A stretch of 38,814 nucleotides of DNA from Blastocatellia bacterium (lineage in GTDB: Bacteria; Acidobacteriota; Blastocatellia; UBA7656): contig JADGNW010000121.1 in NCBI GenBank assembly GCA_017883315.1, positions 1 to 38,814 of the forward strand, read 5' to 3'. The position numbers and the translations under genes are program-made. Shown here in pieces: positions 3,847-33,906 of this stretch (position 1 is the stretch's first letter; every line of letters begins with the position of its first letter). The notes under the pieces are model-generated. The model worked only from the letters and a program-made list of their open reading frames with translations, made no database searches and had not been told where the DNA came from.

Positions 3847-5649
<1,803 letters not shown>

Positions 5650-7813: not shown

Positions 7814-7830
7814 AAAACACTTCCGATCTC

Positions 7831-7898
7831 GGATTGCGGAATTCGGATTGAACATCAAGTTGCGTCTGTTGAAATCGGCAATCCGCAATCCGCAATTC
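7831..7898. repeat. Imperfect inverted repeat built from CGGATTG/CAATCCG heptamers, between the sigma and anti-sigma genes
   Basis: GGATTGCGGAATTCGGATTG (7831-7850) matches the reverse complement of CAATCCGCAATCCGCAATTC (7879-7898) at about 16 of 20 positions. Confidence 0.5.
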
Positions 7899-12423: not shown

Positions 12424-13032
12424 TTGGCTGGCTTTGCGGGAATCGCAGCGGCGGGCAAGAGCATCGAGATGTTGCTTAACGCGTGCTTCGAGGATTTTCA
12501 GCCTCTACAGCCGCCCGACACCGCCAAGAAGACGAAAGCCAAGTTGGTGCACACTGTTGATTTCGAGCGTGGCAAAGTCGCAACCAGCCTCCCGTCGCCG
12601 GCATTGTCGATCTTTCTGTACCGCGTCGATTTCAACAAAGTTATGCGCGCTGCCTGGTCGGGTGCATCGAGCCAGGATGGACGTTCACATCTGGGACTGG
12701 ATCTGCACTATCTGATTACGCCGTGGGCCGAGAACGCCGAAGACGAGCATCTCATCCTCGGCAGAGCGATGCAGTGCATTGAAACGACGCCGATCCTGAG
12801 TGGCCCGTTGTTGCACTCTTCGGGCGAGTGGGATGCCGGCGAATCTATCCAGTTGGTGCTCGAAGAGATTTCAACCGAAGCGGTCATGCGCATGTTCGAT
12901 TCGCTGCCGACCGATTACCGATTGAGCGTGCCTTACATCGCTCGCGTCATGCGATTGGATGGGCGCGTAGCAACGCCTGAAGGTCCGGTGGCCACTGCGA
13001 TCATCGGAGCAGTGCCGACAACAGTGTTATGA
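12424..13032 (+). CDS. DUF4255 protein: Afp16/Pvc16-like tail terminator (cap)
   Basis: TTG start with GGAGGA 7 nt upstream. The motifs LSIFLYRVDFN and LDLHYLITPW are characteristic of DUF4255. First gene of the operon. Confidence 0.85.
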   Translation: MAGFAGIAAAGKSIEMLLNACFEDFQPLQPPDTAKKTKAKLVHTVDFERGKVATSLPSPALSIFLYRVDFNKVMRAAWSGASSQDGRSHLGLDLHYLITPWAENAEDEHLILGRAMQCIETTPILSGPLLHSSGEWDAGESIQLVLEEISTEAVMRMFDSLPTDYRLSVPYIARVMRLDGRVATPEGPVATAIIGAVPTTVL

Positions 13033-13877
13033 ATCAGTTCCTGTCCAGCCGCTACGTCGAAGTGATTCAGCGTCTCGCGCTGGGCATCGAGCCAATTGAC
13101 GCCCAGAGCGCCAGGCGGTTGAGCTATGCTCTTCAGGTCGTGTATGACGTGGCGCCTTTCGGCAAGCGGCGCCCGCCTATCGAGCGGCACGCCTCCAATC
13201 TTTACGCGTTGCGTTATCAGCCCGGCGTGACTGAACAAATTGATGTGCGCTTCTTCGATTTGTCAGAGCGCTCTTACAAGCCTGAGTACGATCGCCGCCG
13301 CGTTGTGCCGCGGCGCCTGAGCATTCCGATCCTTACTCTCGACGATGTCGAAGAGCAGGAACTGCAAGAAGCTGAGGCTGCCGGTAAACAAGCAAAAGAT
13401 TTTCGACGACGCATACGCCGTCCGGTCTTTTTCCCCGGAGCGGCTTATGACTTCATCGCGACGGCTACCGGGCTACGGGGCCGTGTCATGCGCGGCGGCA
13501 AGCCGATGCGTTGGGCGCGCGTGGTCGCGACATTGGGTACAACTGTCGTCGGCCGCGCACACGGTGACGATCGGGGCGAGTTTCTTTTGCTAATCAATGC
13601 GAAGGTGGCGACGGTCACCGCTGTGCCAAAGCCACTCGAAATCACAGTCTCGGTCTTCGCTCCAAAGGATGCGCCAACGCCGGTCCCCGCCAATCTCCCT
13701 GAACTTGATCCCTTGTGGGACTTGCCATTGGAGAAGCTTGCCGAGCCGGGCGAAATCGATCCGGTCGCAGCCGGCGAGCGGCCTCCATGGGAGGAGACAA
13801 AGAGCGTCACTCGAGTTGTGACATTCATTCCGGGAGAGTGTCTTTCCGGAGAAGAGGATTTCGTGATCACCACCTAG
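13029..13877 (+). CDS. CIS-associated protein of unknown function
   Basis: 282-aa ORF with an ATGA overlap onto the cap gene. One segment (LRGRVMRGGKPMRWARVVATLGTTVVGRAHGDDRGEFLLLI) resembles a carboxypeptidase-regulatory-like beta-sandwich motif. Confidence 0.7.
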   Translation: MNQFLSSRYVEVIQRLALGIEPIDAQSARRLSYALQVVYDVAPFGKRRPPIERHASNLYALRYQPGVTEQIDVRFFDLSERSYKPEYDRRRVVPRRLSIPILTLDDVEEQELQEAEAAGKQAKDFRRRIRRPVFFPGAAYDFIATATGLRGRVMRGGKPMRWARVVATLGTTVVGRAHGDDRGEFLLLINAKVATVTAVPKPLEITVSVFAPKDAPTPVPANLPELDPLWDLPLEKLAEPGEIDPVAAGERPPWEETKSVTRVVTFIPGECLSGEEDFVITT

Positions 13878-18401: not shown

Positions 18402-18905
18402 ATGGCCGATCAACTACTTCGTTCGTTCAGATTTCACGTCAAGCTGAGCAAAAGCCCGGCGGTGCAATCGGGATCTCAAGTGCCAACCGATAAGCCGACT
18501 GGTACGGCGCTCGGCGATGGAGCGTTTCAGGAATGCAGCGGCCTGGAAGTCGAGATGGACGTGCAGGAATACCTCGAGGGTGGGCGCAACGACGGTGTGA
18601 TCAAGCGCGTCGGCCGCGCAAAGTACAACGCGATCGTGCTCAAGCGCGGGATGTTCTACGGCAGCGGTGGCGCCGCCAATAGCGATCTGTGGCGCTGGAT
18701 TCAAGGCGTCGTTGCCGGCGAGCTTCCCGTCACCCGCTATGACGGCACCATCACCGTGATGAGCTCCGGAGAGAAAGCCGCGGCAACGTGGGTGTTTGAT
18801 CGCGGGCTGCCGATGAAGATTCGCGGCCCGGAGTTGAATGCGAAAACAGGTGAAGTCGCAATTGAAGAGCTGCACATCGCTCACGAGGGATTGCGGCTGG
18901 TGTAA
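18402..18905 (+). CDS. Tail tube protein (gp19-like, Afp5/Pvc5 type), paralogue 2
   Basis: ATG 4 nt after the sheath-2 stop. FRFHVKL...GAFQECSGLEVEMDVQEYLEGGRN...KYNAIVLKRGM...IEELHIAHEGL. Confidence 0.9.
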   Translation: MADQLLRSFRFHVKLSKSPAVQSGSQVPTDKPTGTALGDGAFQECSGLEVEMDVQEYLEGGRNDGVIKRVGRAKYNAIVLKRGMFYGSGGAANSDLWRWIQGVVAGELPVTRYDGTITVMSSGEKAAATWVFDRGLPMKIRGPELNAKTGEVAIEELHIAHEGLRLV

Positions 18906-18999
18906 GAGTAGCAACGCGAACGCAGAAAACAGCGCGCCTGCGCGACCGCATCACGAACCGCGGACACACAGGCATGCGCGAAACTGAATCGATCGAGCC

Positions 19000-20406
19000 A
19001 TGCACCTCGAGAAAGCAAAAATCACGGTACTCGACGGGAAGAAGGAGATAGACCGTTTCTCCGTTCAGTTCAACCCAACGACTCTCCGCTTGTCGCTCAG
19101 CAATAGAGTGGCGGGCGCGGATTCGTCGGGTACCGCCGTAAACCAGCACACCGGAGCCAGTTCTACCACGCTGGCCATCGAGTTGATATTTGACACCGCC
19201 GACCTGGGCACGACCGGAAATCCAGTCTCCGTGCGGGACCAGACGAAAAAGCTCGAGCGCTTCGTCGCACCGAAGGACACGGGCAAAGATCCGAACGCTC
19301 CGCCCAACATGGGTTTCACCTGGGGCGACCTGCACATCGTCGGCACAGTCGACAGCCTGACAATAGACTTCGATCACTTCGCAGCCAATGGCACGCCATT
19401 GCGAGCCAAGGTCTCGCTTTCGATCAGAGAACAAGATCCTGAGAAGGAGTTGAAGGCGAAGAAGGACACACGGGCCGGCGCGCCCAGTCCTGGCAGCGCA
19501 TCGGCCGGCGGTGTGGGATTCAGCGCATCGGCAAGCTTTGGCTTGGGCGCGTCAGCTAGCGTTGGCGTCGCGCTCGAGGGCGAGAGCTCGGCTGAATTCG
19601 CAGCGCGCGTCGGGGTCGATCCGGCGGCATGGCGCGGCTTGGAGATTGGCGGCGAAAGCTCGATCTCGCTCTCGGCAGGTGTCGAAGTTGGCTTCGATGC
19701 GAACTTGAGCGCGAGCGCCGGACTCGGCGTGACTCTTGGTGTCGAGGCGGGCGCGTCGGCGTCGCTCGAAGCATCGTTTGGTCTGGAAACGAGTGCGAGT
19801 CTGAATGCCGTTGCGGGCGTCGGCGTTGGCGCTGAATTGGCTTCGGGTATTGCGCTTTCGTCAGCGGGCGGAGTGGCGGCTGCACTTGAATCGGTACAGT
19901 CAGTCAAGAATCAACTGGCGGAGCAGCAGGCGCGAGCAGCCTTCCAGGCGCCAGCGAAAGCGTTGCCCACCGCGAGCGCGCCAACCAGTCAAGCGACCAT
20001 TCCTTCGCCAAACGCGGCTCGGGCGATAGCCGCGCGACCGAAGCCCCCTGAACAGCCGCGCACGCCGCTCAACGCTACCGGACTGCCTTCGCTATCTGCA
20101 CAGCAGGCCGCTCCGGCGGCGCCGCGCCGTCCACGCGCCGATGCGCGAGCGAGCTCATTTGGTTTCGGCGTGCCGCTGCGCACTACGGTTGGCGAAGCCG
20201 CTGATCTGCGCTACGGCTCGATGCAGGGCGACGTCGTAGTCAAACCGAGGATCGCCAGCGGGGAACCGCCCGCGACAAGTGATCCGACCACGCCGGCCTG
20301 GGTCGCATTGCCGGCGCGCGATCGTGGCCGAAATGTCGCCGACAAATTACAGGGCCAGGTTCGGCCCACTCGTCCGTGCGGCTGCGCTGGCCGCTGCAAG
20401 CATTGA
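19000..20406 (+). CDS. Afp7/Pvc7-like tube-initiator (baseplate hub) protein with a degenerate LysM and long low-complexity extensions
   Basis: The N-terminal 145 aa match CIS tube-initiator style (MHLEKAKITVLDG...FSVQFNPTTLRLSLSN...LAIELIFDT...FTWGDLHIVG). A LysM-like stretch GESSAEFAARVGVDPAAWRGLEIGG sits at aa 194-218. aa 160-300 are G/A/S-rich alternating repeats; aa 315-385 are P/A-rich. Confidence 0.7.
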   Translation: MHLEKAKITVLDGKKEIDRFSVQFNPTTLRLSLSNRVAGADSSGTAVNQHTGASSTTLAIELIFDTADLGTTGNPVSVRDQTKKLERFVAPKDTGKDPNAPPNMGFTWGDLHIVGTVDSLTIDFDHFAANGTPLRAKVSLSIREQDPEKELKAKKDTRAGAPSPGSASAGGVGFSASASFGLGASASVGVALEGESSAEFAARVGVDPAAWRGLEIGGESSISLSAGVEVGFDANLSASAGLGVTLGVEAGASASLEASFGLETSASLNAVAGVGVGAELASGIALSSAGGVAAALESVQSVKNQLAEQQARAAFQAPAKALPTASAPTSQATIPSPNAARAIAARPKPPEQPRTPLNATGLPSLSAQQAAPAAPRRPRADARASSFGFGVPLRTTVGEAADLRYGSMQGDVVVKPRIASGEPPATSDPTTPAWVALPARDRGRNVADKLQGQVRPTRPCGCAGRCKH

Positions 20407-20523
20407 TGTCCGGCGAAGATGATGTCCGACAAACTTCGGCTTGTCGGTTGGTTGTGGAAAAGAACTGTGTATCGAGAAGCTACGACAAACTGAAGTTCGT
20501 CGGACAAGTTGCGAGGAGTTGTC

Positions 20524-20694
20524 ATGGCCGTTCACGTTGACGAAATGGTTTCGGAAGTTACGGCGGAATCCGATTCGCCCGCCGCCGGAACGAGTAAACA
20601 AGCGCAGTGGGAAGAGCAGGCGAGCATCCGCTCAACACAGGCACAGATCGCTCGCGACCGCTTCCGCACCGCCGCCGAGGGCTACGATGACTGA
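20524..20694 (+). CDS. Small acidic CIS-associated protein
   Basis: 56-aa ORF (MAVHVDEMVSEVTAE...) with a GAGGAG SD. Its stop overlaps the start of the gpD-like gene (ATG at 20687). Confidence 0.5.
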   Translation: MAVHVDEMVSEVTAESDSPAAGTSKQAQWEEQASIRSTQAQIARDRFRTAAEGYDD

Positions 20695-21772
20695 CGAGTT
20701 GCTTGTTTACGCGGGGCCCGTCTTCGAGGTCGATGGCGAAGTCAAAGGCGAATTGGCTCGCGACATTCTACGCCTCGAAATCGAAGAGAGCACTGCCGGA
20801 TTGAAGACACTGACAGCGCGGTTGATCGCGCTCGGCCCGCTTAACGGCGCGTCCGAACAACAGCACATCTACCTTGATGGCTCGATCATCGATTTCGGCA
20901 AGAAGCTCTCCGTGGTCCTTGGCGCCGCCCCTGCCGCGCATACCGTCTTTGCGGGCCGGATCAGCGCGATCGAGGCTGGGTTTCAGGAAGGAGAAGCACC
21001 CGATACCGTGATCTTCGCTGAAGACAAGTTGATGGAATTGCGCATGACGCGCCGCATGAAGTCCCACGAAAACATGAGCGACGGCGACATCGCCAGCGCC
21101 ATTGCATCGGAGCACGGACTAACGCCCGCGGTTGACGCCGACGGGCCGACATACGACGTCGTGCAGCAATGGAATGTAAGCGATCTCGCTTTTCTACGCG
21201 AGCGCGCGAGAAGAATTCAAGCCGAGGTTTGGATCGAGGACGAAACCTTACACTTCAAATCGCGCAGCAACCGGACCGCGACTGAGCTGACGCTTGTGCA
21301 GGGTAATCAGTTGATCTCGGTACGCGCGCGCGCCGATCTTGCCCACCAGCGGACGAAGGTAAAAGTAAGCGGCTACGACGCCAGCCAGCGCGAGCGGATC
21401 GAAGAGGAAGCCGGGGAAGACGCAATTCAGGCAGAAGTCTCGGAAGGCTTGACCGGGCCGGCGGTGCTCGAACGAGCTTTCGGCGGCCGCGTTTCTTTTC
21501 GCGTGCGCGAAGCCCCCTTGCAGTCAACCGAAGCGTCCGATTGGGCGCGAGCCGAAATGCTGAGGCGCGCGCGCAGCTTCGTCACGGTGATCGGCACCAC
21601 GCGCGGTTCAGCCGACATGATCGTCGGCAGCAAGCTGACGCTTGAGCGCACTGGGCATCCGTTCGAGGGGCCGGGTTATTACGTCACGCGCGTTTGCCAC
21701 ACATACGATTTACGCGACGGCTTTCGCACGCACTTTGAAGCCGAGCGGGCAACCGTCCAGGAGGGATCTTGA
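20687..21772 (+). CDS. Late control gene D (gpD) / gp27-like baseplate hub: N-terminal VgrG/Afp8 module
   Basis: 361 aa. SDGDIASAIASEHGLTP, QWNVSDLAFLRERARRI and the C-terminal GPGYYVTRVCHTYDLRDGFRTHFEAER are typical of Phage_GPD proteins. The ORF-track start at 20441 is an unsupported extension. Confidence 0.85.
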   Translation: MTDELLVYAGPVFEVDGEVKGELARDILRLEIEESTAGLKTLTARLIALGPLNGASEQQHIYLDGSIIDFGKKLSVVLGAAPAAHTVFAGRISAIEAGFQEGEAPDTVIFAEDKLMELRMTRRMKSHENMSDGDIASAIASEHGLTPAVDADGPTYDVVQQWNVSDLAFLRERARRIQAEVWIEDETLHFKSRSNRTATELTLVQGNQLISVRARADLAHQRTKVKVSGYDASQRERIEEEAGEDAIQAEVSEGLTGPAVLERAFGGRVSFRVREAPLQSTEASDWARAEMLRRARSFVTVIGTTRGSADMIVGSKLTLERTGHPFEGPGYYVTRVCHTYDLRDGFRTHFEAERATVQEGS

Positions 21773-22443
21773 GCCACCCAATCGGGACATTCAGGTCAGA
21801 CGGTGACGCGCCGCGATATTTCGGCGTCTTTCCATCAATCGTCACCGACATCGTCGACCCCGACAGTCTGGGCCGCATCCAGGTGAAGTTTCCGTGGCTG
21901 GGAGCTGATGGCGATACGGTGCGCGCGTGGGCGACGTTGCTTACACCTTACGCCGATGACGATCAGGGCTTTCAAGTCTTGCCCGCGGTTGATACGCAAG
22001 TCGTCGTGGCTTTTGAAGCCGGGGACCTGCGGCGGCCATACATCGTCGGCTCAGCATGGAATGGCCGAGAAGCGATGCCCGAATCACCAGCCGCGCCGAA
22101 CAACAAACGGCTGATCAAATCGCGCGCCGGCAGCTTGCTTGAATTCGATGACACCGACGGCGCAGCAAAGGTGACCGTCTCGATGAAGAGCGGTCACAAA
22201 GTCGTGCTCGATGACAGCGCGCAGGAGGTGACCGTGCAGCATTCAAACGGCTGTGTGATCAAAATGAACATCGCGGGCCAGGTTGAAATTCAAGCCAATG
22301 CAACGGTGGAGATCACGGCGTCGGCAGTCAACGTTCACGCGCCGGTGGCGACTTTTGACGGCATCATCAACTGCACGACTCTAATTGCGAGCTCCGGCGT
22401 GGTTTCGCCTTCCTACACACCGGGCGCCGGGAACATTTGGTGA
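21769..22443 (+). CDS. gpV / gp5-like spike protein (OB-fold plus beta-helix): C-terminal VgrG/Afp8 module
   Basis: TTG start overlapping the gpD stop (TTGA), with a GGAGGG SD. GVFPSIVTDIVDPDSLGRIQVKFPWLG...WATLLTPYA...VVVAFEAGDLRRPYIVGSAWN is the Phage_base_V OB domain. The C-terminus has beta-helix-like repeats (KVTVSMKSGHKVVLDD, EVTVQHSNGCVIKMN, QVEIQANATVEITASAVNVHAP). Confidence 0.85.
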   Translation: MSHPIGTFRSDGDAPRYFGVFPSIVTDIVDPDSLGRIQVKFPWLGADGDTVRAWATLLTPYADDDQGFQVLPAVDTQVVVAFEAGDLRRPYIVGSAWNGREAMPESPAAPNNKRLIKSRAGSLLEFDDTDGAAKVTVSMKSGHKVVLDDSAQEVTVQHSNGCVIKMNIAGQVEIQANATVEITASAVNVHAPVATFDGIINCTTLIASSGVVSPSYTPGAGNIW

Positions 22444-22445
22444 GT

Positions 22446-24104
22446 ATGAATAATCATCCGTGGAAACTTGTTGGGCCCTGGTATCGCTGGCAACGTCCCG
22501 GCTTGCCGAGCGCCGGGCGCTCGTCGCGCCCAGTTTTCCAGAAGTACGACGGGTCGACTCTCGTCGCCGAGTTTCTCAAGGACCCGCAGCGCTCTCTCAA
22601 ATTCACTGCGGAGGACTTCGTCCACGAAATCAAACCGCTTGCTCCGCTGGCTCCGTATCCTCTCCCCAATCCAAAGCCCCGCCGTCTGTCAGAACTTGGC
22701 TACTTTCCCACTGCGACGCGCAAGCTGTTCCTGGATACGCACAAACGTTTCTACCTGGTCGTGTGCGAGCTGCATTGCGACATGCCCGGCTTCCCCTCGG
22801 TCAATCGCGAACAAGTGTGCGACGCAGGCTTCGTTATCCGCCGCAGGATTGTATCTAATCTCACGCGAGTTGCCCTGGCCGAAGCGCAACCGATCTTTCA
22901 GCGGCTCACCACCGCGCGGCAATCCGTGTTGGAACTCGCCGGAGTGCAGCCCGAAGCACAGCTCGGCCTGTTGAAGAAAGGTCTGGCGCCACAGGGCGAA
23001 GCAATGCTCGCGGGTGCTATCGCCGAATCGATCGACATGAACCAGACCGTCGCACTAGCGCAAATTGGCGCTGAGCGAGCGAACCTGGCCGAGTGGGCCG
23101 GGAAGTTTGGCGTGTCTTTGCGATTGCAAGGCTGGAGCCAAGTTCGTGAAGGCGTCGGCGCATGGATTGATGTTGAAGAGAGCTCGCAGACTGCGATCAC
23201 CGAGCAAGTCTTCCGGCTCTATCCGCTGATTCCCGATCCGCGAGAGGTAAAGCACTCAGGCAAAGGCCGCACGATATATTTTGGCGCGGTTCCGACCGGC
23301 AGCGCTGACACCGACGAATTCGGCACAAGCCGTTTCGATGATGTCACGCAGTACGAGATTCGCTGCTTCGTCCGGCGCTACAAACACGAGCCGCCAAACA
23401 ATGGCCGCAATCCCAAATGCTGCGGCGAAGTCGTATGGAGTTTGCCAACCGAAGTTTATCAACTCGCGCCGCACTTCGATCTTGCGGGGACGAACAATCG
23501 CCCGATCTCGATGCAGCTCCCTGACCTCAAAGCGCTCGAAGCACAAGCCGCGTCGTTGCCGCCTAATCAACTTGCGCCGTTTCGCATGGTCTCGCCGCCG
23601 GACTCGAACCTCGAATTCAGCGCCGACGAAGACGGCAAAAATATCATTGCCAAAGGCAGGTCGAGCGAGATCTGCTCATTCTCGATACCGCTGATCACAA
23701 TCGTCGCGACGTTCGTCTTCAAACTCTTTTTGCCGGTGGTGACGCTGCTCTTTGGATTGTTCTTTCTGCTCAAGCTGAAATTCTGCATCCCGCCAAGCAT
23801 CAGCCTCAGCGCAAGCATCGCGGCGGAATTGAACGCGAAACTGCAACTCGGCCTCGATGTGAGTGTGGATGCACAGCTCGCAGTCGGCGCAGTCCCGGGC
23901 CATGAAATCGGCAATGAGGTTGACGCCAAGCTAAGACTCGGTTTCGGTGACAAGATGACCGATGGATTGGAGAGCGAATTCGGGCCGCGCGCCATCGCCG
24001 AGATGACTAACAGCATTTATCAATCGGGTCAGCAGCAGAACGCGCCGTCACTGACCGCGAGACTCCAATACGAAGCGCACGTCGAGGCGGAGCTTGTTGC
24101 ATGA
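22446..24104 (+). CDS. 552-aa protein of unknown function with a C-proximal hydrophobic helical hairpin, encoded between the spike and gp25 genes
   Basis: ATG at 22446 just after the spike stop; its own stop overlaps the gp25 start (ATGA at 24101). A hydrophobic stretch of about 45 residues: ICSFSIPLITIVATFVFKLFLPVVTLLFGLFFLLKLKFCIPPSISL. Conserved-looking motifs WYRWQRP and KRFYLVVCELHCDMPGFP. Confidence 0.75.
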   Translation: MNNHPWKLVGPWYRWQRPGLPSAGRSSRPVFQKYDGSTLVAEFLKDPQRSLKFTAEDFVHEIKPLAPLAPYPLPNPKPRRLSELGYFPTATRKLFLDTHKRFYLVVCELHCDMPGFPSVNREQVCDAGFVIRRRIVSNLTRVALAEAQPIFQRLTTARQSVLELAGVQPEAQLGLLKKGLAPQGEAMLAGAIAESIDMNQTVALAQIGAERANLAEWAGKFGVSLRLQGWSQVREGVGAWIDVEESSQTAITEQVFRLYPLIPDPREVKHSGKGRTIYFGAVPTGSADTDEFGTSRFDDVTQYEIRCFVRRYKHEPPNNGRNPKCCGEVVWSLPTEVYQLAPHFDLAGTNNRPISMQLPDLKALEAQAASLPPNQLAPFRMVSPPDSNLEFSADEDGKNIIAKGRSSEICSFSIPLITIVATFVFKLFLPVVTLLFGLFFLLKLKFCIPPSISLSASIAAELNAKLQLGLDVSVDAQLAVGAVPGHEIGNEVDAKLRLGFGDKMTDGLESEFGPRAIAEMTNSIYQSGQQQNAPSLTARLQYEAHVEAELVA

Positions 24105-24490
24105 CGACACTCAGCTTCTTAGGAAAAGGTTGGAGCGTCCCCCTGCGGCCCGATGACCGCACCGGCAAGCTCGAATACGAGAGCGGCACAGAAAAGGTGC
24201 GCCAATCAATTCAGATCATTCTGGACACCGAGCCGGGCGAGCGGATCATGCGCCCCACCTTCGGCTGCGGACTTCGCCGCTACTTGATGAAGCCGAACAC
24301 CACCGCGACGCGAACGTTGATTCAGCGCGAAGTGACTAGTGCGCTCAAAGCATGGGAGCCGCGCATAGAAGCGCAAAGCGTGCAAGTGTCGCCGGGCGAT
24401 GATCCAGCGCTCGTGTTGATCGAGATTTTCTACATTCACAAACGCGACGGGCGTCAGGGCAATTTCGTCTACCCGTTCTATCTGGAGTAA
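24101..24490 (+). CDS. GPW/gp25-like baseplate wedge protein (Afp9 type)
   Basis: 129 aa. IQIILDTEPGERIMRPTFGCGLRRYLMKPN is the hallmark gp25 motif. Confidence 0.9.
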   Translation: MTTLSFLGKGWSVPLRPDDRTGKLEYESGTEKVRQSIQIILDTEPGERIMRPTFGCGLRRYLMKPNTTATRTLIQREVTSALKAWEPRIEAQSVQVSPGDDPALVLIEIFYIHKRDGRQGNFVYPFYLE

Positions 24491-24496
24491 CCCGGT

Positions 24497-26644
24497 ATGC
24501 CGATACCCAATCCCATCCTCGACGACCGCTCTTACCAGCAACTGCGGGATGAGTTGGTGCGCCGGATTCCGGTCTACACACCGGAATGGACGGATCACAA
24601 CGCGAGTGATCCGGGCATCACGCTGATCGAACTGTTTTCATTTCTCGGCGAGAACCTGCTCTTCCGCTTCAATCAAATTCCCGAAGCTGCGCGGCTCGAG
24701 TTTTTACGTCTGCTGCAAATACCCATGCGTCCGGCAGTGGCGGCTCGCTCGCTCGTGACGATGACGACCGTCAACCCAAAAGGCGTGCTGGTCGCGCTCG
24801 AGGCGGAATTGAAAGCGGGCAATCTGTCGTTCGAGACGAAGACTGAGGTCAAAGTTTGGCCGGTGTCGTTTCTCGCCGTGGGCCGCGTGCAATCGCCCGA
24901 ACCCGATCCCAAGAAGGAACCCGAGGTCCACGAATTTGCCGTTCGCGCAATTGACGCCATCGGCCCTCTGCCCGCGGGTCAGAGTCTGGTCTACTACAAG
25001 AACCAAACCGTCGATCTACAGAATCCGGCGGTTGATTTCAGCGCGACGGTTGACGGAAAGCTATGGGTTGCGGTGCTCAAGGAGAAAGGCGCCGAACCGC
25101 TGGAACTCGGCGGCGCGCTGCTCAATCTCGGCTTTGTGCTCGACCCGGTCTTCGCGTCGATGGATCAAGTGATCGCCTGTCCCGGCGCTGGTTTCACGCC
25201 GGCTGCGCCGGCCGTCGAATGGACGGTTTCGACCGGCGAGGTGAAGAACGGCACTCCGCAATTTCGCAGCATCGCGCAGGAAGGCGACTCCACGCGGGGC
25301 CTGAGTCAGGACGGTGTTGTCAGGTTGAGATTGCCCAACGACATCAAACAGGTCGGCGCCTTTTCAGTTGACGATCCCGACAAACTGGGCACGGGCGATT
25401 TCCCGCCGGTGCTGGATGAAGAGACTGAGAAGAAGATTCTCTGCTGGTTATCCGCGTTTCGCCACGACGGCAGCCGCTTCGGCAAAGTGCTCTTCGTCGG
25501 CGCTAACGCGGCGGAGATCGCGCAGACTAAGAAAGCGCGGCCCGAATTTCTCGGGACCGGCACGGCGCAACCCGATCAAGCGTACCCGCTTGTGAATAAG
25601 CCTGTCATCACCGGCAGTCTGAAGCTCGACGTGGAAGAGGGCGGGAGCTGGGTCGAGTGGAAAGAGGTCGATGGCTTCCATGCGAGCCAGCCGGATGACC
25701 GCCATTTCGTCGTGGACCTCGAAGCGGGCAAAGTACGTTTCGGGAACGGGCTGCAAGGCTTGCCCCCGCAGATCGGACAGAGAATTCGCGCGCGCGAGTA
25801 CCGCTACGGCGGGGGCGTTGAAGGTAATGTACCACCCAAAGCAATTTCGAAGCTCGTCGACTTTCCCGATGTCAAAGTCGTCAATCCGCTGCGTGCGAAC
25901 GGCGGCGCCGCCGCCGAATCCATCAGAGACGCGCTCACCCGCATACCAGGCGAATTGCGGCGCCGCGATCGCGCCGTCACCGCAACGGATTTTCAAGAAC
26001 TCGCGCTCGCCACACCCGGCGCCGATGTCGGGCGCGCCGAGTGCCTGCCGCGCTTTCATCCGCCGACGAAGCGATCGGAAGCCGCCGGCGTCGTGACCGT
26101 TGTCGTCTGGCCGCGCGAAGATCCGGCTCATCCGAACGCGCCGGCGCCTGATCGCAATTTGCTGCGCGCCGTCTGCGGCTGGCTCGATCTGCGACGACTG
26201 GTGACGACCGAACTGTATGTAATTCCGCCCACCTATCGCAAAGTCGCGGTAGCCGTCGGCTTGCAAGTCAAATCGGGCTTCGGCATCGAAGCCGTCCGCC
26301 ATTGGGTCGAGCTGGTGTTGCGGCAGTACCTCGCGCCGCTTCCTCCCTACGGGCCTGAAGGACAGGGCTGGCCGCTCGGCAGGCGTGTGCACGGTCCCGA
26401 ACTCGAGGCCGCCGCCTTGCAGGTCGAGGGTGTGCAGTTCCTAAACGATCTCAAAGTCGCCGGCTGGGACGAGCAACAGAAAGTTTGGCTTCCGGGCACA
26501 GTCAATCTCGAAAAATTTGAAGTGGCGGAGTTGACTGAGATCACTGTTGTTGAAGGGCCCGTCAGTATCGCCCCAGGCCAGACCATCGAGCCTGCGCCTG
26601 CCGGAGTGCCTGTGCCGATTCCCATCATTCGCGAGGAGTGTTAG
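24497..26644 (+). CDS. Baseplate J / gp6-like wedge protein (Afp11 type)
   Basis: 715 aa. The N-terminus LDDRSYQQLRDELVRRIPVYTPEWTDHNASDPGITLIELFSFLGENLLFRFNQIPE is typical of CIS baseplate assembly proteins. Confidence 0.9.
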   Translation: MPIPNPILDDRSYQQLRDELVRRIPVYTPEWTDHNASDPGITLIELFSFLGENLLFRFNQIPEAARLEFLRLLQIPMRPAVAARSLVTMTTVNPKGVLVALEAELKAGNLSFETKTEVKVWPVSFLAVGRVQSPEPDPKKEPEVHEFAVRAIDAIGPLPAGQSLVYYKNQTVDLQNPAVDFSATVDGKLWVAVLKEKGAEPLELGGALLNLGFVLDPVFASMDQVIACPGAGFTPAAPAVEWTVSTGEVKNGTPQFRSIAQEGDSTRGLSQDGVVRLRLPNDIKQVGAFSVDDPDKLGTGDFPPVLDEETEKKILCWLSAFRHDGSRFGKVLFVGANAAEIAQTKKARPEFLGTGTAQPDQAYPLVNKPVITGSLKLDVEEGGSWVEWKEVDGFHASQPDDRHFVVDLEAGKVRFGNGLQGLPPQIGQRIRAREYRYGGGVEGNVPPKAISKLVDFPDVKVVNPLRANGGAAAESIRDALTRIPGELRRRDRAVTATDFQELALATPGADVGRAECLPRFHPPTKRSEAAGVVTVVVWPREDPAHPNAPAPDRNLLRAVCGWLDLRRLVTTELYVIPPTYRKVAVAVGLQVKSGFGIEAVRHWVELVLRQYLAPLPPYGPEGQGWPLGRRVHGPELEAAALQVEGVQFLNDLKVAGWDEQQKVWLPGTVNLEKFEVAELTEITVVEGPVSIAPGQTIEPAPAGVPVPIPIIREEC

Positions 26645-26647
26645 CCG

Positions 26648-28900
26648 ATGCCTACCCTTCGTCCGTTCGCGCTCATTAGAACCCACGACCAGTGGCTGCG
26701 AGCGTCGCACGAGCAGACGGCGCTCGAGGGAGAAGTGGTGCAACTCTACTGGCGCGACGACGCACCGGCGAGCGCGGATCAGACCCCGTTTCTTGAGCGT
26801 GGCGCGGGGCTGGCTTTTGATGAACATTGCCGGCTCTATCACAGCGTGCCCGCCGAAGGCCGCCTCGAGCGTTTGATGTGGGCCGCACAAGATCCGCTGC
26901 AACCGGTAAGCGCGCTGCCCGTGCCCGTAAATCTTTTTGCTTCCGACACGGAAGAACAAGTCGGCGATTTCGCTTTACCAGCCGAAAAGCCAGCGGTCTT
27001 GAGCGGAGCGCACGCCCTGGCGGTTGCTGAAGACGACCGATTGTTCGTCGCTGAATCAGGCGGGAAACGAATTTTGATTTACGACCTTTGGTCCAACCGA
27101 CTGCTGCGCCGCGTGCAGCTTGGCGCGGTACCGGTCGACCTGGTCGCGACGGGCCGCACGGTCTACGCGCTGCTCGCATCACCCCCGGGGCTTATCAAGC
27201 TTGACGCGCGCAGCGATCCGTACGCGCTCGCCTGGCCGAGCGAGATTACCGAGCCGGCGCGTATTGCGTTGTCACCAAACGGCGAGCTGTTCATCCTCGA
27301 GCACGCCGGAACTCTGCAAGCGCGCGTTGTGAAGCATTCCGAGCCGGGCCAAATCATCGACGTCGAGTTTGCGACCGACATCGAGTTTCAAACCGGAGAT
27401 CCGCTGCTGGTCCAGGCTTGCGGGAGCGATAAGCAAGTGCTGGTTGTGGCGCGGCGTCCCGGCGAAGATTTCCTGCGTTATTGTCTCGGCGAAAGCCAAC
27501 CCGCTGTCTTGCCGCCGCTCAAGGCGCGTGGTTATGACGGTCTCGGGATTGTGCTCGCGCCCGATGGGCGCGTCGGATTCTGGACTCACAACGGCTTTCG
27601 TCACACGGTCGCGGCGCGATTGCGTTACTTGCCAACAGGCAGCGTGACCACGTTCAGGCTTGATAGTGGCGAGTTTCACACTGTCTGGGGCCGTCTGTTC
27701 TTAGATGCCTGCATACCGAAAGATACTGCGATAGTGGTGCGCTGCATCACCGCCGACGAGCCGCCGGATGAACCGGTGCTGCCGCGCTCGCGTCCCGCGA
27801 ATACGAACGCCGATCCGCCGTTCGAGAATCTGTCGCCGCCCTTGCCGCCGCGATCGTTCAAGCAGCGGATCGAGAATGCTTTCGCGCAATCGATGCATCG
27901 CCGCGAGACCGGGCGTGAGCTGCCCTGGGTGCGTCCCACGGAAGACGATCCGTTCGAAACCTACGAAGCGCCGGTGCTCGCCGAGCCGGGCCGTTACCTG
28001 TGGGTGCGCATTGAACTGAGCGGCAACACGCGGACGACGCCGAGGGTCAAGGCCTTACGCGCCGAACACCCGACACACGATTATTTGCGCCGCATCCCGC
28101 GGACTTTCTCGCGCGATGAACAAATCGCCTCATTCCTGCGGCGCTACCTGGCACCGTTCGAGGGTGTGCTCGGCGAGCTTGAAGCAAAAGCCGACGCGCG
28201 CGGGGCCCTGCTCGATCCGCACAGCGCGCCGGCTGAGATTCTGCCGTGGCTGGCGAGCTTTCTCGGCTTGACGCTTGACGAACGAATGGCGCGCGCGCCG
28301 CGTCCGGGCGGACAAACCGAAGACGTGCGCCGCACCCTGATTGCCGAGGCGACGTTGCTCTTCCGGTTTCGCGGCACTGTGCCGGGATTGCGACGCTTTC
28401 TCGAAATCTATCTAGGGACGCAGACCGTCGTGATCGAGAAATTTCGCGTGCGTGGACTGGGGGGGGCGATGTTGGGAGATCCGACTGCGCTGACATCCAG
28501 CTCCGTTCTGGGCGCCGGCTTCCGGGTCGGCGGCGCGATTGGTGAAGACGGAACGCAGACGCTGACTGCGTCGGTCGAAGACGCTTTTGAAACGCATGCT
28601 CATCGCTTTGCCCTGATCGTTCCGGCCTCGCTTACGTCAGAGCAACAGGATGTCGTGCGTCAGATTCTGGAGCTGCACCGTCCGGCGCACACGCTTGTGG
28701 AAGTGTGTACGGTCGGGGCCGGTATGCGAGTTGGCCGGGGTTTGCACATTGCGCTGACTTCGATCATTGGGCGCAGCGATGGCTTCACCCAGTTGCAGCT
28801 TGGCAATGCGCTGCTGGGACGCGGCGCGATCCTTGGAAAGCCGGAAGCCGGCACCGTGATCGGCGGCAGCAAGCTCGGCGAAGACAGTCGGGTTGGTTAA
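26648..28900 (+). CDS. P2 gpI / gp7-like baseplate wedge protein (Afp12 type)
   Basis: 750 aa. The central motif PAEILPWLASFLGLTLDERM...LFRFRGTVPGLRRFLEIYLG matches the Tail_P2_I family. Confidence 0.85.
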   Translation: MPTLRPFALIRTHDQWLRASHEQTALEGEVVQLYWRDDAPASADQTPFLERGAGLAFDEHCRLYHSVPAEGRLERLMWAAQDPLQPVSALPVPVNLFASDTEEQVGDFALPAEKPAVLSGAHALAVAEDDRLFVAESGGKRILIYDLWSNRLLRRVQLGAVPVDLVATGRTVYALLASPPGLIKLDARSDPYALAWPSEITEPARIALSPNGELFILEHAGTLQARVVKHSEPGQIIDVEFATDIEFQTGDPLLVQACGSDKQVLVVARRPGEDFLRYCLGESQPAVLPPLKARGYDGLGIVLAPDGRVGFWTHNGFRHTVAARLRYLPTGSVTTFRLDSGEFHTVWGRLFLDACIPKDTAIVVRCITADEPPDEPVLPRSRPANTNADPPFENLSPPLPPRSFKQRIENAFAQSMHRRETGRELPWVRPTEDDPFETYEAPVLAEPGRYLWVRIELSGNTRTTPRVKALRAEHPTHDYLRRIPRTFSRDEQIASFLRRYLAPFEGVLGELEAKADARGALLDPHSAPAEILPWLASFLGLTLDERMARAPRPGGQTEDVRRTLIAEATLLFRFRGTVPGLRRFLEIYLGTQTVVIEKFRVRGLGGAMLGDPTALTSSSVLGAGFRVGGAIGEDGTQTLTASVEDAFETHAHRFALIVPASLTSEQQDVVRQILELHRPAHTLVEVCTVGAGMRVGRGLHIALTSIIGRSDGFTQLQLGNALLGRGAILGKPEAGTVIGGSKLGEDSRVG

Positions 28901-28910
28901 AAGGGCGGCA

Positions 28911-30428
28911 ATGCAGGAAGTGCGGATTCACAAATTTGAGACTCACTATCGGCTGCCAAAGCGCGCGTTGGCCGAGCGTCGGCGGCTGGATCAGGTGAGG
29001 GCGCTGGTGCTCGACACAGCGTTGGAACTCGCGCTGGAGCGCGCTGGCGTGCCGGAAGACGGCGAGTTATGTATTCGAACCCTCGTTGCACCGATCCGCC
29101 TTCGTCTCAGTGGAACGGATGCGTCGCTTGTCCTGGATTGGAGCGTCGCGCTGGCCCACGAGATTTCGCGCGCGCTACGCGATGGCTCAAGTCCGAACAT
29201 GGTCTTCTATTACTCACGCAGGCAAGCGCTGATGGATTTGGTAATTAAAGTCTCTCGCGGCGACGTGAGGCGTATCTGGGCGTGGAGGCAACTGGGACTC
29301 TGGCGCTCCAATGACCAATCTAGTGATAGGGCTAACGAAAGACAGGCGGTCCTCGAGTTGGCGCACGCTCTCTGCGCTGAACCCGCGATGGTCGTTCCTG
29401 CTCTGCGCGTTTTGGCGGTTGAGGGAGGGCTGCAGCACATTGCGAACCGACTAACTGGAAGGGAATGGGAAGCGCTCGCACTCGCGGCTCTGTCGGCAAT
29501 CGGAGCGGCGCACTTACTTTCCGAAGCAGATCACGCGCTGTCGTCGCGTGATCTGCGTGATGCGTTGCGCGTGCTCAACGGCTCGCGCGTGCTACGCGCG
29601 ATTACGTCTTCAAGCGCTTTGCGCGAGGCAAGCATTGAAGCCCGGCGGGCAGTCGCGGCGCTGGCGGTGCTGGATGCTGAGCCGATGTTGCTTCGGACTG
29701 ATAGCGCGCAAATCGTGATCGCCGTCATCGCCGAAGCGACACGTTCGGCGCCCGTTGAAACGATAAATGTCTTACCTGAGCAACTGCCGTCTGGCACCTT
29801 GGCCTTGACTGAACGATCACAACTCCGCGCGCCGGGTTCAATAGAGCGAACGCGGGAAGCTGAGTTTGAAGGGGCCGACGCGATCACTGAACCAGACGAG
29901 GAGGAAGCCAAACCGGTCGATCTGCGCCGGCGAGCCTTTACGCGTTTCGGCGGTTTGCTCTTTCTGCTCGGTCTAATCGAGGACCTTTGCTTGCCCGAAG
30001 AAATCATCGCGCACCCGGCGCTGGGCGCGCGCCCGCTTCTTTGGGTAATTCATCAACTTGCGCTAGCGCTGTTGACGATCGAGCCAAACGATCCGGCGGC
30101 GCTGGCCTTCGCGGGCCGGCCGCCCGATGCCAGGCCGCCGTCAGAGGAGCAAGAAGCGCCAACCGAAATCGAGGCTCGCGCGACCAAGACTTTCGCCGCA
30201 CGCATCGTCAAGCGTTTGGGTGCGCTGCTCGATTTCGAGGATGCGATCCAGACCTGTTTGCTTGAGTTCGTTTGCTGTCGCCGCGCTGAGATCGTTGCCG
30301 ATCCCGGTTGGATTGAAGTGAGGTTTTCGCTTGATGAAGTTTCGACTGAGATTCGACGCGCCGGCGTCGATCTCGATCCCGGCTATCTGTCCTGGCTGGG
30401 AGTAGTCGTGAGATTTGTCTATGAGTGA
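28911..30428 (+). CDS. Helical Ala/Leu/Arg-rich protein in the Afp14 (tape measure) position; function unproven
   Basis: 505 aa. Its last 8 nt overlap the ATPase start. In characterised eCIS loci the tape-measure gene sits immediately upstream of the AAA+ ATPase gene. I see no recognisable enzymatic motif. Confidence 0.65.
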   Translation: MQEVRIHKFETHYRLPKRALAERRRLDQVRALVLDTALELALERAGVPEDGELCIRTLVAPIRLRLSGTDASLVLDWSVALAHEISRALRDGSSPNMVFYYSRRQALMDLVIKVSRGDVRRIWAWRQLGLWRSNDQSSDRANERQAVLELAHALCAEPAMVVPALRVLAVEGGLQHIANRLTGREWEALALAALSAIGAAHLLSEADHALSSRDLRDALRVLNGSRVLRAITSSSALREASIEARRAVAALAVLDAEPMLLRTDSAQIVIAVIAEATRSAPVETINVLPEQLPSGTLALTERSQLRAPGSIERTREAEFEGADAITEPDEEEAKPVDLRRRAFTRFGGLLFLLGLIEDLCLPEEIIAHPALGARPLLWVIHQLALALLTIEPNDPAALAFAGRPPDARPPSEEQEAPTEIEARATKTFAARIVKRLGALLDFEDAIQTCLLEFVCCRRAEIVADPGWIEVRFSLDEVSTEIRRAGVDLDPGYLSWLGVVVRFVYE

Positions 30429-32448: not shown

Positions 32449-32552
32449 CAAAGTGAACGCTGATGATTGCCAAGAAACAGAGTGCTCGCAAAGTTCGCAA
32501 GCTTAAGAGAGCTGGTGTTGTGAGCATGAGCAGTTCTATCAAAGGAGAATTT

Positions 32553-33887
32553 ATGGCTGATCCCACAACGACCCTCGAGTACGCAACGCAAAGGAGCGAA
32601 GCCGCGAAACAGGCTGTCACCGACGCGCAAGTGCACCTTGCCGAAGCGCAGGCGGCTATCACCACCAAGCGCGATGAACTCGCCACAGCCACGGCCGCCT
32701 TCGTTGATCTGGAAAAAACCGCCGGCGAGATTCGCAAGAAACTGGGGGTTATCCCGACGCCGGTTGACGGCCCGAAGCTCCTCGACGATCTTGAACAGGT
32801 CATCATCGGCTCGCGCGCCAAGCAGGCGGCGATCTTGAAAGCCGGATCGGACCTGCGTGCCGCACAGGCGGACTCGGATCGAGCGCAAGCCGAACTGGCT
32901 GCGGCATCGGCAGGTCGGGCCAAAGCCAATTCCGATTTGCTTCAAGCCAGCCAGTCCGACAGCCTGCGCAACCTCTGGAAGAACGCCCTCGCCGGTGAGC
33001 CGCTCGTGACGATCAAAGACGACGCGGACCTCGCGCTCACAACCACACCCTTGACCGAAGCCGAAACGCGCGTCAACGATGACCTGCCGAAGAGCCTGCG
33101 CGATCGCGCCATCGAGCGACGCACCGCAGAAGCCGATCGTTTCGCGAATGCCCTGGAGAGCGTGCTAACCGCTGAGGATCGCTTGCTAACAGAGCGCGAG
33201 AAAACCGGCGCGGCCGGCACGGTTGAAAGCACGCGCATCCGACTGCTGCGCACCGAAGCCGCCGCCAGAGATTTCGTCAACAACACCAAGAGCCGCTTCG
33301 ATCAGGCGCAGGCGCTGCTCACACAGGTCGCTGATAAATCGCGCTCCCCGCTCACGCCCGAACAGACCGCAGCGCTCACCGATGCGACCTTGAAGGATGC
33401 GCGTGGCGACGCAGCGGCAGCAGAAAAAGCGCTGGATGACCTGAGGAAGATTGTTGAAGACAAGCAAGCGGTGCTCGATCAAGCGAAGCTCGACGCCATT
33501 GTCACTTCTGATAAAACAGCCGTGGGGCCGGCTGAGAAGGACTTAAAGGATGCGCAAGATAAGCTCACGCCTGCCCTGGCCTCTTACGATCCCAGCGTGT
33601 TGGACGCCTGGGAAGCGGCGGCACCCGATGCGACTTGGCGGCTGCTCGACGACTTTGAAAGGGCAAAGGCCGTGCTCACAATGCTGAGCGCCTCCGATCC
33701 GTCCAAGCTCGCGACGGATCTCACTAACGCCGAGACGAAATACGTCGAAGCCATGCTCGCCGCCGATGCAAGCGCCGCCCTGCTCACTCAGCTTGCCGCT
33801 GAGCAGGCACGCCGCGACGCGCGGCAACAGAGCGCGCTGCAATCTGAGAGCAATAGCCTCTTCAGCGCTTTGCGCGGTGATAACTAA
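32553..33887 (+). CDS. Ala/Asp/Leu/Lys-rich all-helical coiled-coil protein, unknown function
   Basis: 444 aa from the ATG at 32553, which has AAGGAG 7 nt upstream (the ORF track starts at 32463). Heptad-like content throughout (AKQAVTDAQVHLAEAQAAITTKRDELATATAAFVDLEK...). Confidence 0.7.
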   Translation: MADPTTTLEYATQRSEAAKQAVTDAQVHLAEAQAAITTKRDELATATAAFVDLEKTAGEIRKKLGVIPTPVDGPKLLDDLEQVIIGSRAKQAAILKAGSDLRAAQADSDRAQAELAAASAGRAKANSDLLQASQSDSLRNLWKNALAGEPLVTIKDDADLALTTTPLTEAETRVNDDLPKSLRDRAIERRTAEADRFANALESVLTAEDRLLTEREKTGAAGTVESTRIRLLRTEAAARDFVNNTKSRFDQAQALLTQVADKSRSPLTPEQTAALTDATLKDARGDAAAAEKALDDLRKIVEDKQAVLDQAKLDAIVTSDKTAVGPAEKDLKDAQDKLTPALASYDPSVLDAWEAAAPDATWRLLDDFERAKAVLTMLSASDPSKLATDLTNAETKYVEAMLAADASAALLTQLAAEQARRDARQQSALQSESNSLFSALRGDN

Positions 33888-33906
33888 TAGACGAAGGAGA
33901 CGCGTT

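Follow-up and report, generated by a model that had tools for sequence, protein, structure and literature searches.

We analyzed a 38,814-nucleotide stretch of DNA from a Blastocatellia bacterium (Acidobacteriota; contig JADGNW010000121.1 of assembly GCA_017883315.1), referred to below as the window, in which a contractile injection system (CIS) cassette carries, between its spike gene and its sheath-initiator gene, an unannotated gene whose 552-amino-acid (aa) product contains a candidate hydrophobic hairpin and is called here the hairpin protein. Read 5' to 3', the cassette encodes a Pvc16_N cap protein, an unknown 282-aa protein, a sheath, a tube, a second sheath and a tube-like protein; then a 468-aa CIS_tube-domain protein, the Phage_GPD hub, the Phage_base_V spike, the hairpin protein, gp25, gpJ and gpI; and finally an unknown 511-aa protein, an Afp15-like AAA ATPase, an unknown 474-aa protein, a weakly CIS13-like protein and a long open reading frame (ORF) that leaves the window. 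The genes around the one under study are as follows.

20441-21772, + strand: gp27-like hub (Phage_GPD; Pfam PF05954)
21769-22443, + strand: gp5-like half of a split VgrG spike, oligonucleotide/oligosaccharide-binding (OB) fold plus beta-helix (Pfam Phage_base_V, E = 6.5e-24)
22446-24104, + strand: hairpin-protein gene, an intact ORF of 552 codons with its stop codon at 24102-24104
24101-24490, + strand: gp25-like sheath initiator (Pfam GPW_gp25, E = 7.6e-25)
24497-26644, + strand: gpJ-like baseplate wedge gene (Pfam Baseplate_J)
26648-28900, + strand: gpI-like baseplate wedge gene (Pfam Tail_P2_I)

The true start of the hub gene is probably downstream of 20441; its orthologues in two related cassettes, L001 and L003, are 361 aa long. 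An earlier note on this DNA, made from the letters alone, had proposed a spike-adjacent 552-aa protein with a hydrophobic hairpin of roughly 45 residues, which might either tether the baseplate to a host membrane or serve as a pore-forming element delivered on the spike. The ORF is real, as its translation contains all the strings quoted in that note, including WYRWQRP, and the segments KRFYLVVCELHCDMPGFP and ICSFSIPLITIVATFVFKLFLPVVTLLFGLFFLLKLKFCIPPSISL lie at aa 409-454. Since a public protein collection holds an identical 552-aa protein, the ATG at 22446 is supported as the start codon. Adjacency to the spike was confirmed as well: the Phage_base_V gene stops 2 nt before this ATG, and at the other end the gp25 ATG overlaps the hairpin-protein stop codon as ATGA. 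Along the gene, we distinguished the following parts.

22446-23561, + strand: N-terminal globular domain with a beta-rich core, aa 1-372 (AlphaFold2; most blocks above 95 in predicted local distance difference test score, pLDDT)
22740-22820, + strand: Cys/His cluster 1 (H99, C107, H110, C111, C125), from alignment column counts
22866-23108, + strand: long predicted alpha-helical hairpin arm inserted in the beta core, aa 141-221 (helices 141-166, 169-179 and 182-221 in both models)
23364-23423, + strand: Cys/His cluster 2 (family consensus C307-x4-H312-x3-C316-x8-C325, knuckle-like), from column counts
23562-23669, + strand: linker, aa 373-408, Gly/Pro/Ser-rich, with a Gly-rich tether at its end before the hairpin (composition, alignment columns, pLDDT 62-81)
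23670-23795, + strand: putative hydrophobic helical hairpin, aa 409-450 (arm A 409-425, turn K426 to P430, arm B 431-446, C410/C447 flanks, CIPP end)
23796-24101, + strand: acidic, sequence-variable tail, aa 451-552
23820-23888, + strand: beta-type amphipathic stretch, aa 459-481, with strict hydrophobic/polar alternation
24054-24095, + strand: semi-conserved C-terminal motif (..TArLqYEahVE..), a predicted strand (motif conserved in set A1; pLDDT 92 for aa 541-550, strand at 542)

The hydrophobic stretch predicted at the outset was found at aa 409-452, where the 19-residue Kyte-Doolittle (KD) mean peaks at 2.45 and 27 windows reach at least 1.6. The other cassette genes have 0-1 such windows each, and aa 409-450 is thus the only segment of transmembrane (TM) grade in the cassette. 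Rough Hessa-type insertion free energies (dG) came to ~0 kcal/mol for the best hairpin windows versus +10.4 kcal/mol for the best segment elsewhere in the protein. All 112 representatives, the most distant at 28% identity, have a TM-grade segment here, with a mean KD of about 2.0 over the ~40-residue stretch and no insertions or deletions between the two cysteines. A conservation profile built from 115 representatives, each from a different 50%-identity cluster, gave a mean top-residue frequency of 0.725 for aa 409-452, compared with 0.53 in the beta core and 0.28 in the tail. Since the segment is TM-grade in every representative and is the most conserved part of the family, its hydrophobicity is not due to chance.

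We then looked at the individual positions of this segment, whose consensus reads IC[SF]F[AS]IPLITIVA.FV[LF]-x-LFLP[IV]VV..F[GQN]LW[FW][LM]L.L[KR]FCIPP. Position 426 is always polar with a varying charge (N/R/K/S/Q/E; K or R in 43/115), P430 is kept in 105/115, C410 and C447 are each present in 109/112, with ~17 residues on either side of the turn, and A421 and L442 are invariant. No 100-degree periodicity was detected in the conservation of the hairpin, i.e., there is no variable lipid-facing stripe. Judged from the sequences, position 426 together with Pro430 appears to mark an exposed turn; in an antiparallel hairpin, C410 and C447 would come together where the two arms open, and the structure model implies that both ends of the C-terminal module would lie on the same side. 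A hairpin is therefore favoured over a single span, on account of the polar turn and proline, the symmetric cysteines and the confidently placed C-terminus. A minority clade (L054, from Acidobacteria metagenome-assembled genome [MAG] nzgw76, together with P0233 and P0219) has a much more polar arm B, e.g., IFTPIIVNILHVYYLLYDNVC, and a still hydrophobic arm A, which bears on whether the hairpin must span a bilayer.

Beyond the hairpin, the tail carries a net negative charge in all 112 sequences, with an average length of 108 aa, a mean charge of -11 and a composition rich in A, L, D and G. The earlier note had called it amphipathic; the amphipathicity stood, and its helical type did not, the periodicity being that of a beta strand. 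For aa 459-481 the hydrophobic moment (muH) at 180 degrees is 0.65, a value reached by 0 of 2000 shuffles, versus a nonsignificant 0.12 at 100 degrees. Within the first 45 residues after the hairpin, 75% of the 112 sequences contain a significant alternating window with L/A/V/I/F in the apolar phase and D/E/S/K in the polar phase, e.g., FDFDVDFELDVDIEL. This element appears to be conserved in pattern and not in sequence, and it fits strands with one greasy and one acidic face. In the model the tail is partly disordered, with helices at 488-528 (pLDDT 81-86), and its C-terminal strand probably docks on the N-terminal domain.

A first AlphaFold model, made from 22 sequences, was mediocre (pLDDT 61), and AlphaFold2 run on a 112-sequence alignment reached a mean pLDDT of 85.8 and a predicted TM-score (pTM) of 0.84. 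The beta-rich core of the N-terminal domain comprises aa 1-137 and 224-372 and bears the conserved motifs WYRW, RKLFLDTHKRFYLVVCELHCD and YEIRCFVRR. The inserted helical arm, ~60 Å long in the model, is the least conserved part of this domain, variable in length and sequence and deleted in two relatives (P0100 and P0118). Two groups of conserved cysteines and histidines may be metal sites: in cluster 1, H99 is found in 112, C107 in 85, H110 in 90, C111 in 105 and C125 in 87 of 112 sequences, and in cluster 2, C307 is found in 104, H312 in 79, C316 in 78 and C325 in 105, the window's own clade having a rearranged cluster 2 (Y312, P316 and an extra C326). The linker that leads from this domain to the hairpin (G 15.7%, P 12.4%, S 10.2%) has a median length of 36 aa, and its columns 402, 405 and 406 are mostly Gly.

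Using Foldseek, we found no match to the model of mean pLDDT 86 at E ≤ 1e-3 in the PDB, which includes the Afp, PVC, AlgoCIS, tCIS, CIS-Sc, SalCIS, pyocin, T4 and type VI secretion system (T6SS) baseplates, or in BFVD; the fold thus appears to be new relative to these two collections. The best-ranking matches were the periplasmic adaptors AcrA/MexA/MacA, with E ≥ 0.012, TM-scores of 0.11-0.23 and root-mean-square deviations of 12-28 Å. This resemblance was weak with both models, no HlyD-type Pfam match was found, and we set it aside as a generic topology of a beta domain plus an alpha-hairpin. Descent of the N-terminal domain from a duplicated neighbour was also rejected, since hhalign comparisons with gpJ, gpI, the 511-aa unknown protein and the 468-aa tube-domain protein gave probabilities of at most 3%.

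To the databases the hairpin protein is equally unfamiliar, with no Pfam, NCBIfam, PHROG or PDB-sequence match, whether one sequence or a family profile was used as the query. The suggestion that it is absent from the Afp/PVC parts list therefore held, both in these searches and in the lack of a fold match to the solved CIS baseplates. A word-indexed search returned at least 1,106 relatives, all named 'hypothetical' and none with a Pfam domain, and a profile search of 1.84 billion cluster representatives gave 1,164 matches at E ≤ 1e-3 (254 at E ≤ 1e-30), a number that counts clusters at 50% identity and is a lower bound for the family. Scanning species-representative genomes, we recovered 57 loci from Acidobacteriota, Gemmatimonadota, Verrucomicrobiota, Planctomycetota, Chloroflexota, Actinomycetota, Beta- and Gammaproteobacteria and a 'delta' lineage. 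The family is thus found in at least eight phyla and in both diderm and monoderm hosts. The closest relatives of the window's protein are from Pyrinomonadaceae and Blastocatellia (Acidobacteriota), and four of the loci belong to cultured strains: Plasticicumulans lactativorans DSM 25287, Amycolatopsis kentuckyensis NRRL B-24129, Lentzea miocenica BCCO 10_0856 and Streptomyces coerulescens CGMCC 4.1597. No description of the protein was found in the literature; the tape-measure-like Sle1 effectors are a different concept.

To score the neighbours, the loci were searched with the window's own cassette proteins. The hairpin gene lies inside the same CIS cassette, between spike and gp25, in 57 of 57 genome loci and in 6 of 6 'viral' contigs. 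Immediately upstream is gpV in 52 of the 53 loci that have upstream sequence, the 53rd being frameshifted with gpV slightly further upstream, and immediately downstream is gp25 in 52 of 55 loci, the other three being frameshifted long-read MAG contigs in which gpJ comes next. Independent gene calls for the Plasticicumulans and Verrucomicrobiae contigs gave the same gene order and no PAAR domain. The six contigs were the only ones among 2.9 million viral contigs to carry a relative; as all six are the same CIS cassette, we take these matches to show CIS specificity and to say nothing more about a context in phages. Homologues commonly lying outside CIS loci, which the earlier note had named as speaking against its reading, were not seen in the 57 loci and six viral contigs. 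That note's description of the protein as possible cargo is disfavoured, the gene being universally present, syntenic and of structural type and not a polymorphic effector, and because its position is constant across all loci examined we regard it as a fixed component and not as exchangeable cargo. Taken as a whole, the hairpin protein is a CIS-exclusive, universally retained, unannotated family. Of the earlier note's interpretation, the hairpin and the tie to CIS are thus borne out; tether and delivered element, its two suggested roles, are weighed below as candidate readings.

Two divergent loci (L063:11374-15798, IMG/VR UViG_3300047312_000557, and L066:11560-18170) have a large insertion exactly between the hairpin gene and gp25. 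The L063 insertion is a 1,474-aa ORF that bears the effector-marker domain eCIS_core (DUF4157; E = 2e-21) as well as a hydrophobic stretch of its own. In T6SS loci, cargo genes follow vgrG/PAAR, and the hairpin gene/gp25 junction may likewise be a cargo-gene insertion site.

Since the gene always adjoins the spike gene, we examined which type of spike the cassette encodes. The gp5-like spike aligns only to the C-terminal half (OB fold plus beta-helix) of the VgrG, Afp8, Pvc8 and All3320 chains. In characterised systems, VgrG-type blunt-ended spikes are PAAR-capped. Here, no PAAR gene, holin or endolysin was found anywhere in the window, and no PAAR gene appeared in the precomputed Pfam hits of the orthologous cassettes L001 and L003, a result that applies to these cassettes and not to whole genomes. 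Chen et al. 2019 (PMC6899500) reported afp10/PAAR to be absent only from subtype IIb of the extracellular CIS (eCIS), which they further described as having a split afp8, a single afp11, a divergent afp12/13, a small ORF at the afp6 position and two to three extra conserved genes without known domains, for which they asked whether the missing components are compensated. The window's cassette shows a split afp8 (Phage_GPD, 20441-21772, plus Phage_base_V, 21769-22443), one Baseplate_J and one Tail_P2_I gene, a weak CIS13_fam match and no detectable afp10/PAAR in the cluster. The locus matches subtype IIb point by point, an assignment made by gene content and not by phylogeny, and for this reason the hairpin gene is very probably one of the unnamed subtype-specific genes of that study. 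PMC6899500 gives them no name, sequence features or function, and the hairpin, the acidic beta-amphipathic tail, the new fold and the phylogenetic breadth are newly described here for a IIb gene family. Core genes were defined by Pfam domains in the census of Geller et al. 2021, which missed this family because no Pfam model of it exists.

We next compared the hairpin protein with known elements that might play a similar part. It resembles PAAR (Afp10/Cis10) in the spike-associated role that PAAR has elsewhere, which is vacant in exactly this lineage, and in having conserved Cys/His positions; however, it is 552 aa long as opposed to ~100 aa and carries a hydrophobic hairpin and an acidic tail. 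No PAAR_motif (PF05488) or DUF4150 match was obtained (Pfam at E ≤ 0.01, NCBIfam), and no PAAR chain was among the top 50 Foldseek matches against the PDB. The CIS anchors Cis13, CisA, SalCis19 and Hbor_38620 are similar in that membrane-type segments in or next to CIS clusters are thought to link the baseplate to a membrane. In architecture they are a tail-fibre protein with one C-terminal TM helix, a bitopic protein that has a domain in the periplasm, a hydrolase with three TM segments and a protein with six; unlike the hairpin protein, none is encoded between spike and gp25, and those described are clade-restricted. No sequence or fold similarity to the deposited CIS anchors was found. We rejected a tCIS Cis13-type anchor, as the hairpin protein has no CIS13_fam match; the cassette's own CIS13-like protein (33766-35238) matches CIS13_fam weakly, at E = 1.7e-10 and well below the curated cut-off, and has no hydrophobic segment (maximum KD19 = 1.09). 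CisA is bitopic, with a disordered cytoplasmic N-terminus, one TM segment and a periplasmic substrate-binding-like C-terminal domain (PMC12237407). This differs from a folded 370-aa N-terminal domain, a hairpin and an acidic low-complexity tail, and a CisA-type anchor was rejected on this comparison, made by description and not by sequence.

Spike-borne membrane segments offer a further comparison, for which we considered the prePAAR/Eag-dependent TM-domain effectors of T6SS (PMC12881460). Their likeness lies in hydrophobic TM segments carried on the spike of a contractile machine. Such an identity was rejected, as the hairpin protein has no PAAR or toxin domain, no DUF1795 protein is present in the cassette by Pfam and the gene's position is invariant. 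T6SS effectors of the Tse6 class insert spike-borne TM segments in the target membrane, and they are polymorphic toxins that have a PAAR domain and need Eag chaperones. Colicin-type pore formers, type III secretion system (T3SS) translocators and viral fusion peptides have highly conserved hydrophobic hairpins of ~40 residues that are shielded by amphipathic elements and deployed into a membrane. To these the hairpin protein has no sequence or fold relation, and its shield would apparently be beta-type and acidic in place of amphipathic helices. A colicin pore-forming domain in particular was excluded by the lack of a Pfam match or a PDB fold match, and the resemblance is limited to the length and hydrophobicity of the hairpin.

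At somewhat less than even chances, we tentatively favour the view that the hairpin protein is a structural, spike- or hub-associated subunit of a PAAR-less, IIb-like CIS with a shielded, deployable membrane-insertion hairpin. A place at the spike or hub is supported because the gene always lies between spike and gp25, with its start and stop coupled to its neighbours, and because the spike is of a PAAR-capped type with no PAAR gene in the cassette. Membrane insertion is supported because the cassette's sole TM-grade segment is also its protein's most conserved region. The N-terminal domain, of apparently novel fold, and its helical arm would be built into the baseplate beside the gp5-like spike, and the C-terminal module would loop out as a Gly-rich tether, the Cys-flanked hairpin, the acidic beta-amphipathic strands and a C-terminal strand returning to the N-terminal domain. 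In the resting particle, the hairpins would pack on each other and be covered by the acidic amphipathic strands, which would keep them soluble and explain why every face of them is conserved. On entry of the spike into a bilayer, the hairpin would insert into that membrane as a built-in membrane-engaging or membrane-opening element at the puncture point, so that the protein would functionally fill the place of the PAAR tip and of the separate anchors of other lineages. The location at the spike, the shielding by the tail, the oligomeric packing, the deployment on firing and the membrane entered are all inferred. Conservation on all faces without indels is typical of fusion peptides and of toxin or translocator hairpins and unlike that of lipid-facing anchors. 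We favour this mechanism because it would account together for conservation on every face, for an alternation kept across the family, for a tail that is always acidic and for the pair of cysteines. A solubilising lid fits because the tail is acidic in 100% of the sequences and keeps its alternation despite sequence drift, which would have no obvious role in a passive anchor. The same hairpin in diderm and monoderm hosts lends further support, as does the eCIS_core gene directly after the hairpin gene in one divergent locus, like cargo after vgrG/PAAR in T6SS.

Several observations weigh against such a subunit at the spike. Its fold is unlike PAAR, and a 60-kDa subunit is bulky for a tip. A Rosetta-stone search, made to see whether the protein is naturally fused to spike or baseplate proteins, gave a single fragment, an apparent gene-calling artefact. 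No Eag/DUF1795-type chaperone is recognisable by Pfam among the cassette proteins, and at such hydrophobicity the segment would ordinarily be taken up by the signal recognition particle (SRP)/YidC route and end up in the producer membrane, which favours an anchor. Whole-protein identity is 42%, versus 62-73% for the hub and spike proteins, as would be expected for a more peripheral subunit. AlphaFold places the hydrophobic segment in one long helix and not in a hairpin (helix 414-436 plus 439-443, pLDDT 58-73), and a generic test for a membrane hairpin was accordingly mixed, with the hydrophobicity and the turn signature present, arms of only ~17 residues and a dG of ~0. The broader proposal, that one novel-fold subunit with a Cys-stapled hydrophobic hairpin, enclosed by acidic beta-strands, replaced both the PAAR tip and the separate membrane complexes across the IIb-type lineage (at least eight phyla) and is deployed into the punctured membrane, strikes us as doubtful.

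The main alternative, in our estimate somewhat less likely than the favoured view, is a constitutive anchor. The hairpin would then enter the cytoplasmic membrane of the producer co-translationally, its two ends staying in the cytoplasm, and the N-terminal domain would recruit or nucleate the baseplate there. On this view the CIS would be of a membrane-anchored, T6SS-like or 'cytoplasmic' type, firing out through the envelope of its producer. The TM-grade hydrophobicity with a dG of ~0, the status of the segment as the cassette's sole membrane-type element, the ends of the module apparently on the same side (which allows an even number of crossings) and the K/R residues at 443 and 445 on the C-flank, which fit the positive-inside rule, are all consistent with it, as is the presence in monoderm and diderm hosts, for which the cytoplasmic membrane is the common denominator. 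No lysis or release genes were found in the window, and there are precedents in the Cis13 TM helix (PMC8894136), CisA (PMC12237407), SalCis19 and Hbor_38620 (PMC11566945). However, the known CIS anchors are lineage-restricted, whereas the hairpin is nearly invariant across at least eight phyla and on all helical faces; its arms have only ~17 residues each and contain Pro, its N-flank lacks positive charge (mean -0.7), the turn residue is K or R in 43/115, and the always-acidic, beta-amphipathic juxtamembrane tail would be left unexplained. The cassette also has an eCIS-like fibre candidate, the weak CIS13_fam match, and an Afp15-like ATPase. Anchoring and deployment could both apply, since firing would carry along an anchor that sits at the spike tip.

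The same all-face conservation without a variable lipid-facing stripe could also reflect protein packing, if the helices were buried in an oligomeric (trimeric or hexameric) plug, collar or cage in the baseplate or round the spike and never met a membrane. The invariant A421 and L442, the fixed length, the markedly less hydrophobic arm B of the minority clade (L054, P0233, P0219), the existence of spike cages in other CIS and the weak Foldseek resemblance, in topology only, to hexameric periplasmic adaptors are in line with such a core. We nevertheless consider it improbable: a 40-residue stretch with a mean KD of ~2.0 is far above ordinary protein cores, the Gly-rich tether and the moderate model confidence set the segment apart from the well-packed N-terminal domain, and no solved baseplate has a comparable element. 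A polymorphic pore-forming toxin, loaded on the spike as a true cargo effector, would account for a hydrophobic hairpin with amphipathic elements and for a gene that adjoins the spike gene, but we regard it as very improbable, since all the loci examined have this gene in the same place and none has another gene in its stead, no partner resembling an immunity protein is apparent, Pfam gave no toxin or colicin match, the N-terminal domain is highly conserved with structural-type motifs, and recognisable cargo (eCIS_core) is a separate gene where present.

Several other features of the window were recorded. The 282-, 511- and 474-aa cassette proteins (13029-13877, 28893-30428 and 32463-33887) have no Pfam or NCBIfam match, and the 511-aa protein, encoded after gpI in essentially all related loci, evolves fastest among the conserved genes, at a median identity of 36%. 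Between the tube-like genes and the hub lie two tiny ORFs, 18838-18987 (49 aa, Cys-rich) and 20376-20540 (54 aa), the second of which occupies the afp6 position; these positions also hold small genes in the Plasticicumulans (31 and 58 aa) and Verrucomicrobiae (56 aa only) cassettes. The gpI-like wedge protein (26648-28900) is long, at 750 aa, and with a faint NHL-repeat match in its N-terminal part it may have an extra propeller-like domain at the baseplate periphery.

The region 5' of the cassette consists of housekeeping genes, namely a ROK kinase, lepA, TonB, an extracytoplasmic function (ECF) sigma/anti-sigma pair, a tetratricopeptide-repeat protein and MsrA. Of these, lepA (3847-5649) is broken by an in-frame TAG at 4450-4452, which presumably falls exactly at a conserved Trp (TGG) of LepA proteins. 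It looks like a point mutation or an assembly error and not like recoding, since TAG is a normal stop elsewhere in the window. The ECF sigma factor and its zf-HC2 anti-sigma factor (7040-8548, - strand), ~4 kb upstream of the cassette and beside the TonB-like gene, could be CIS regulators. A DUF4258 protein (2135-2386) is directly preceded by an abutting 90-aa ORF; the pair spans 1863-2386, resembles a toxin-antitoxin-like small pair and looks unrelated to the CIS.

Whether a CIS lineage acts extracellularly, in anchored form or in the cytoplasm is not at present predictable from sequence, according to PMC12998442, and for lineages other than Afp/PVC and the canonical T6SS the manner in which a CIS contacts and crosses membranes is an open question. 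The family described here is new and unannotated and marks a variant within a known kind of system. For subtype IIb it provides a concrete candidate for membrane engagement, being universal in the lineage, unique to CIS and the sole membrane-type element, and its cultured carriers make the question directly testable. If the broader proposal of a lineage-wide replacement is true, the machine would in effect bring along a translocon or an element like a fusion peptide, and CIS would have a further, new way to engage membranes. A self-contained membrane-insertion module would also be of interest for the engineering of CIS as delivery vehicles.

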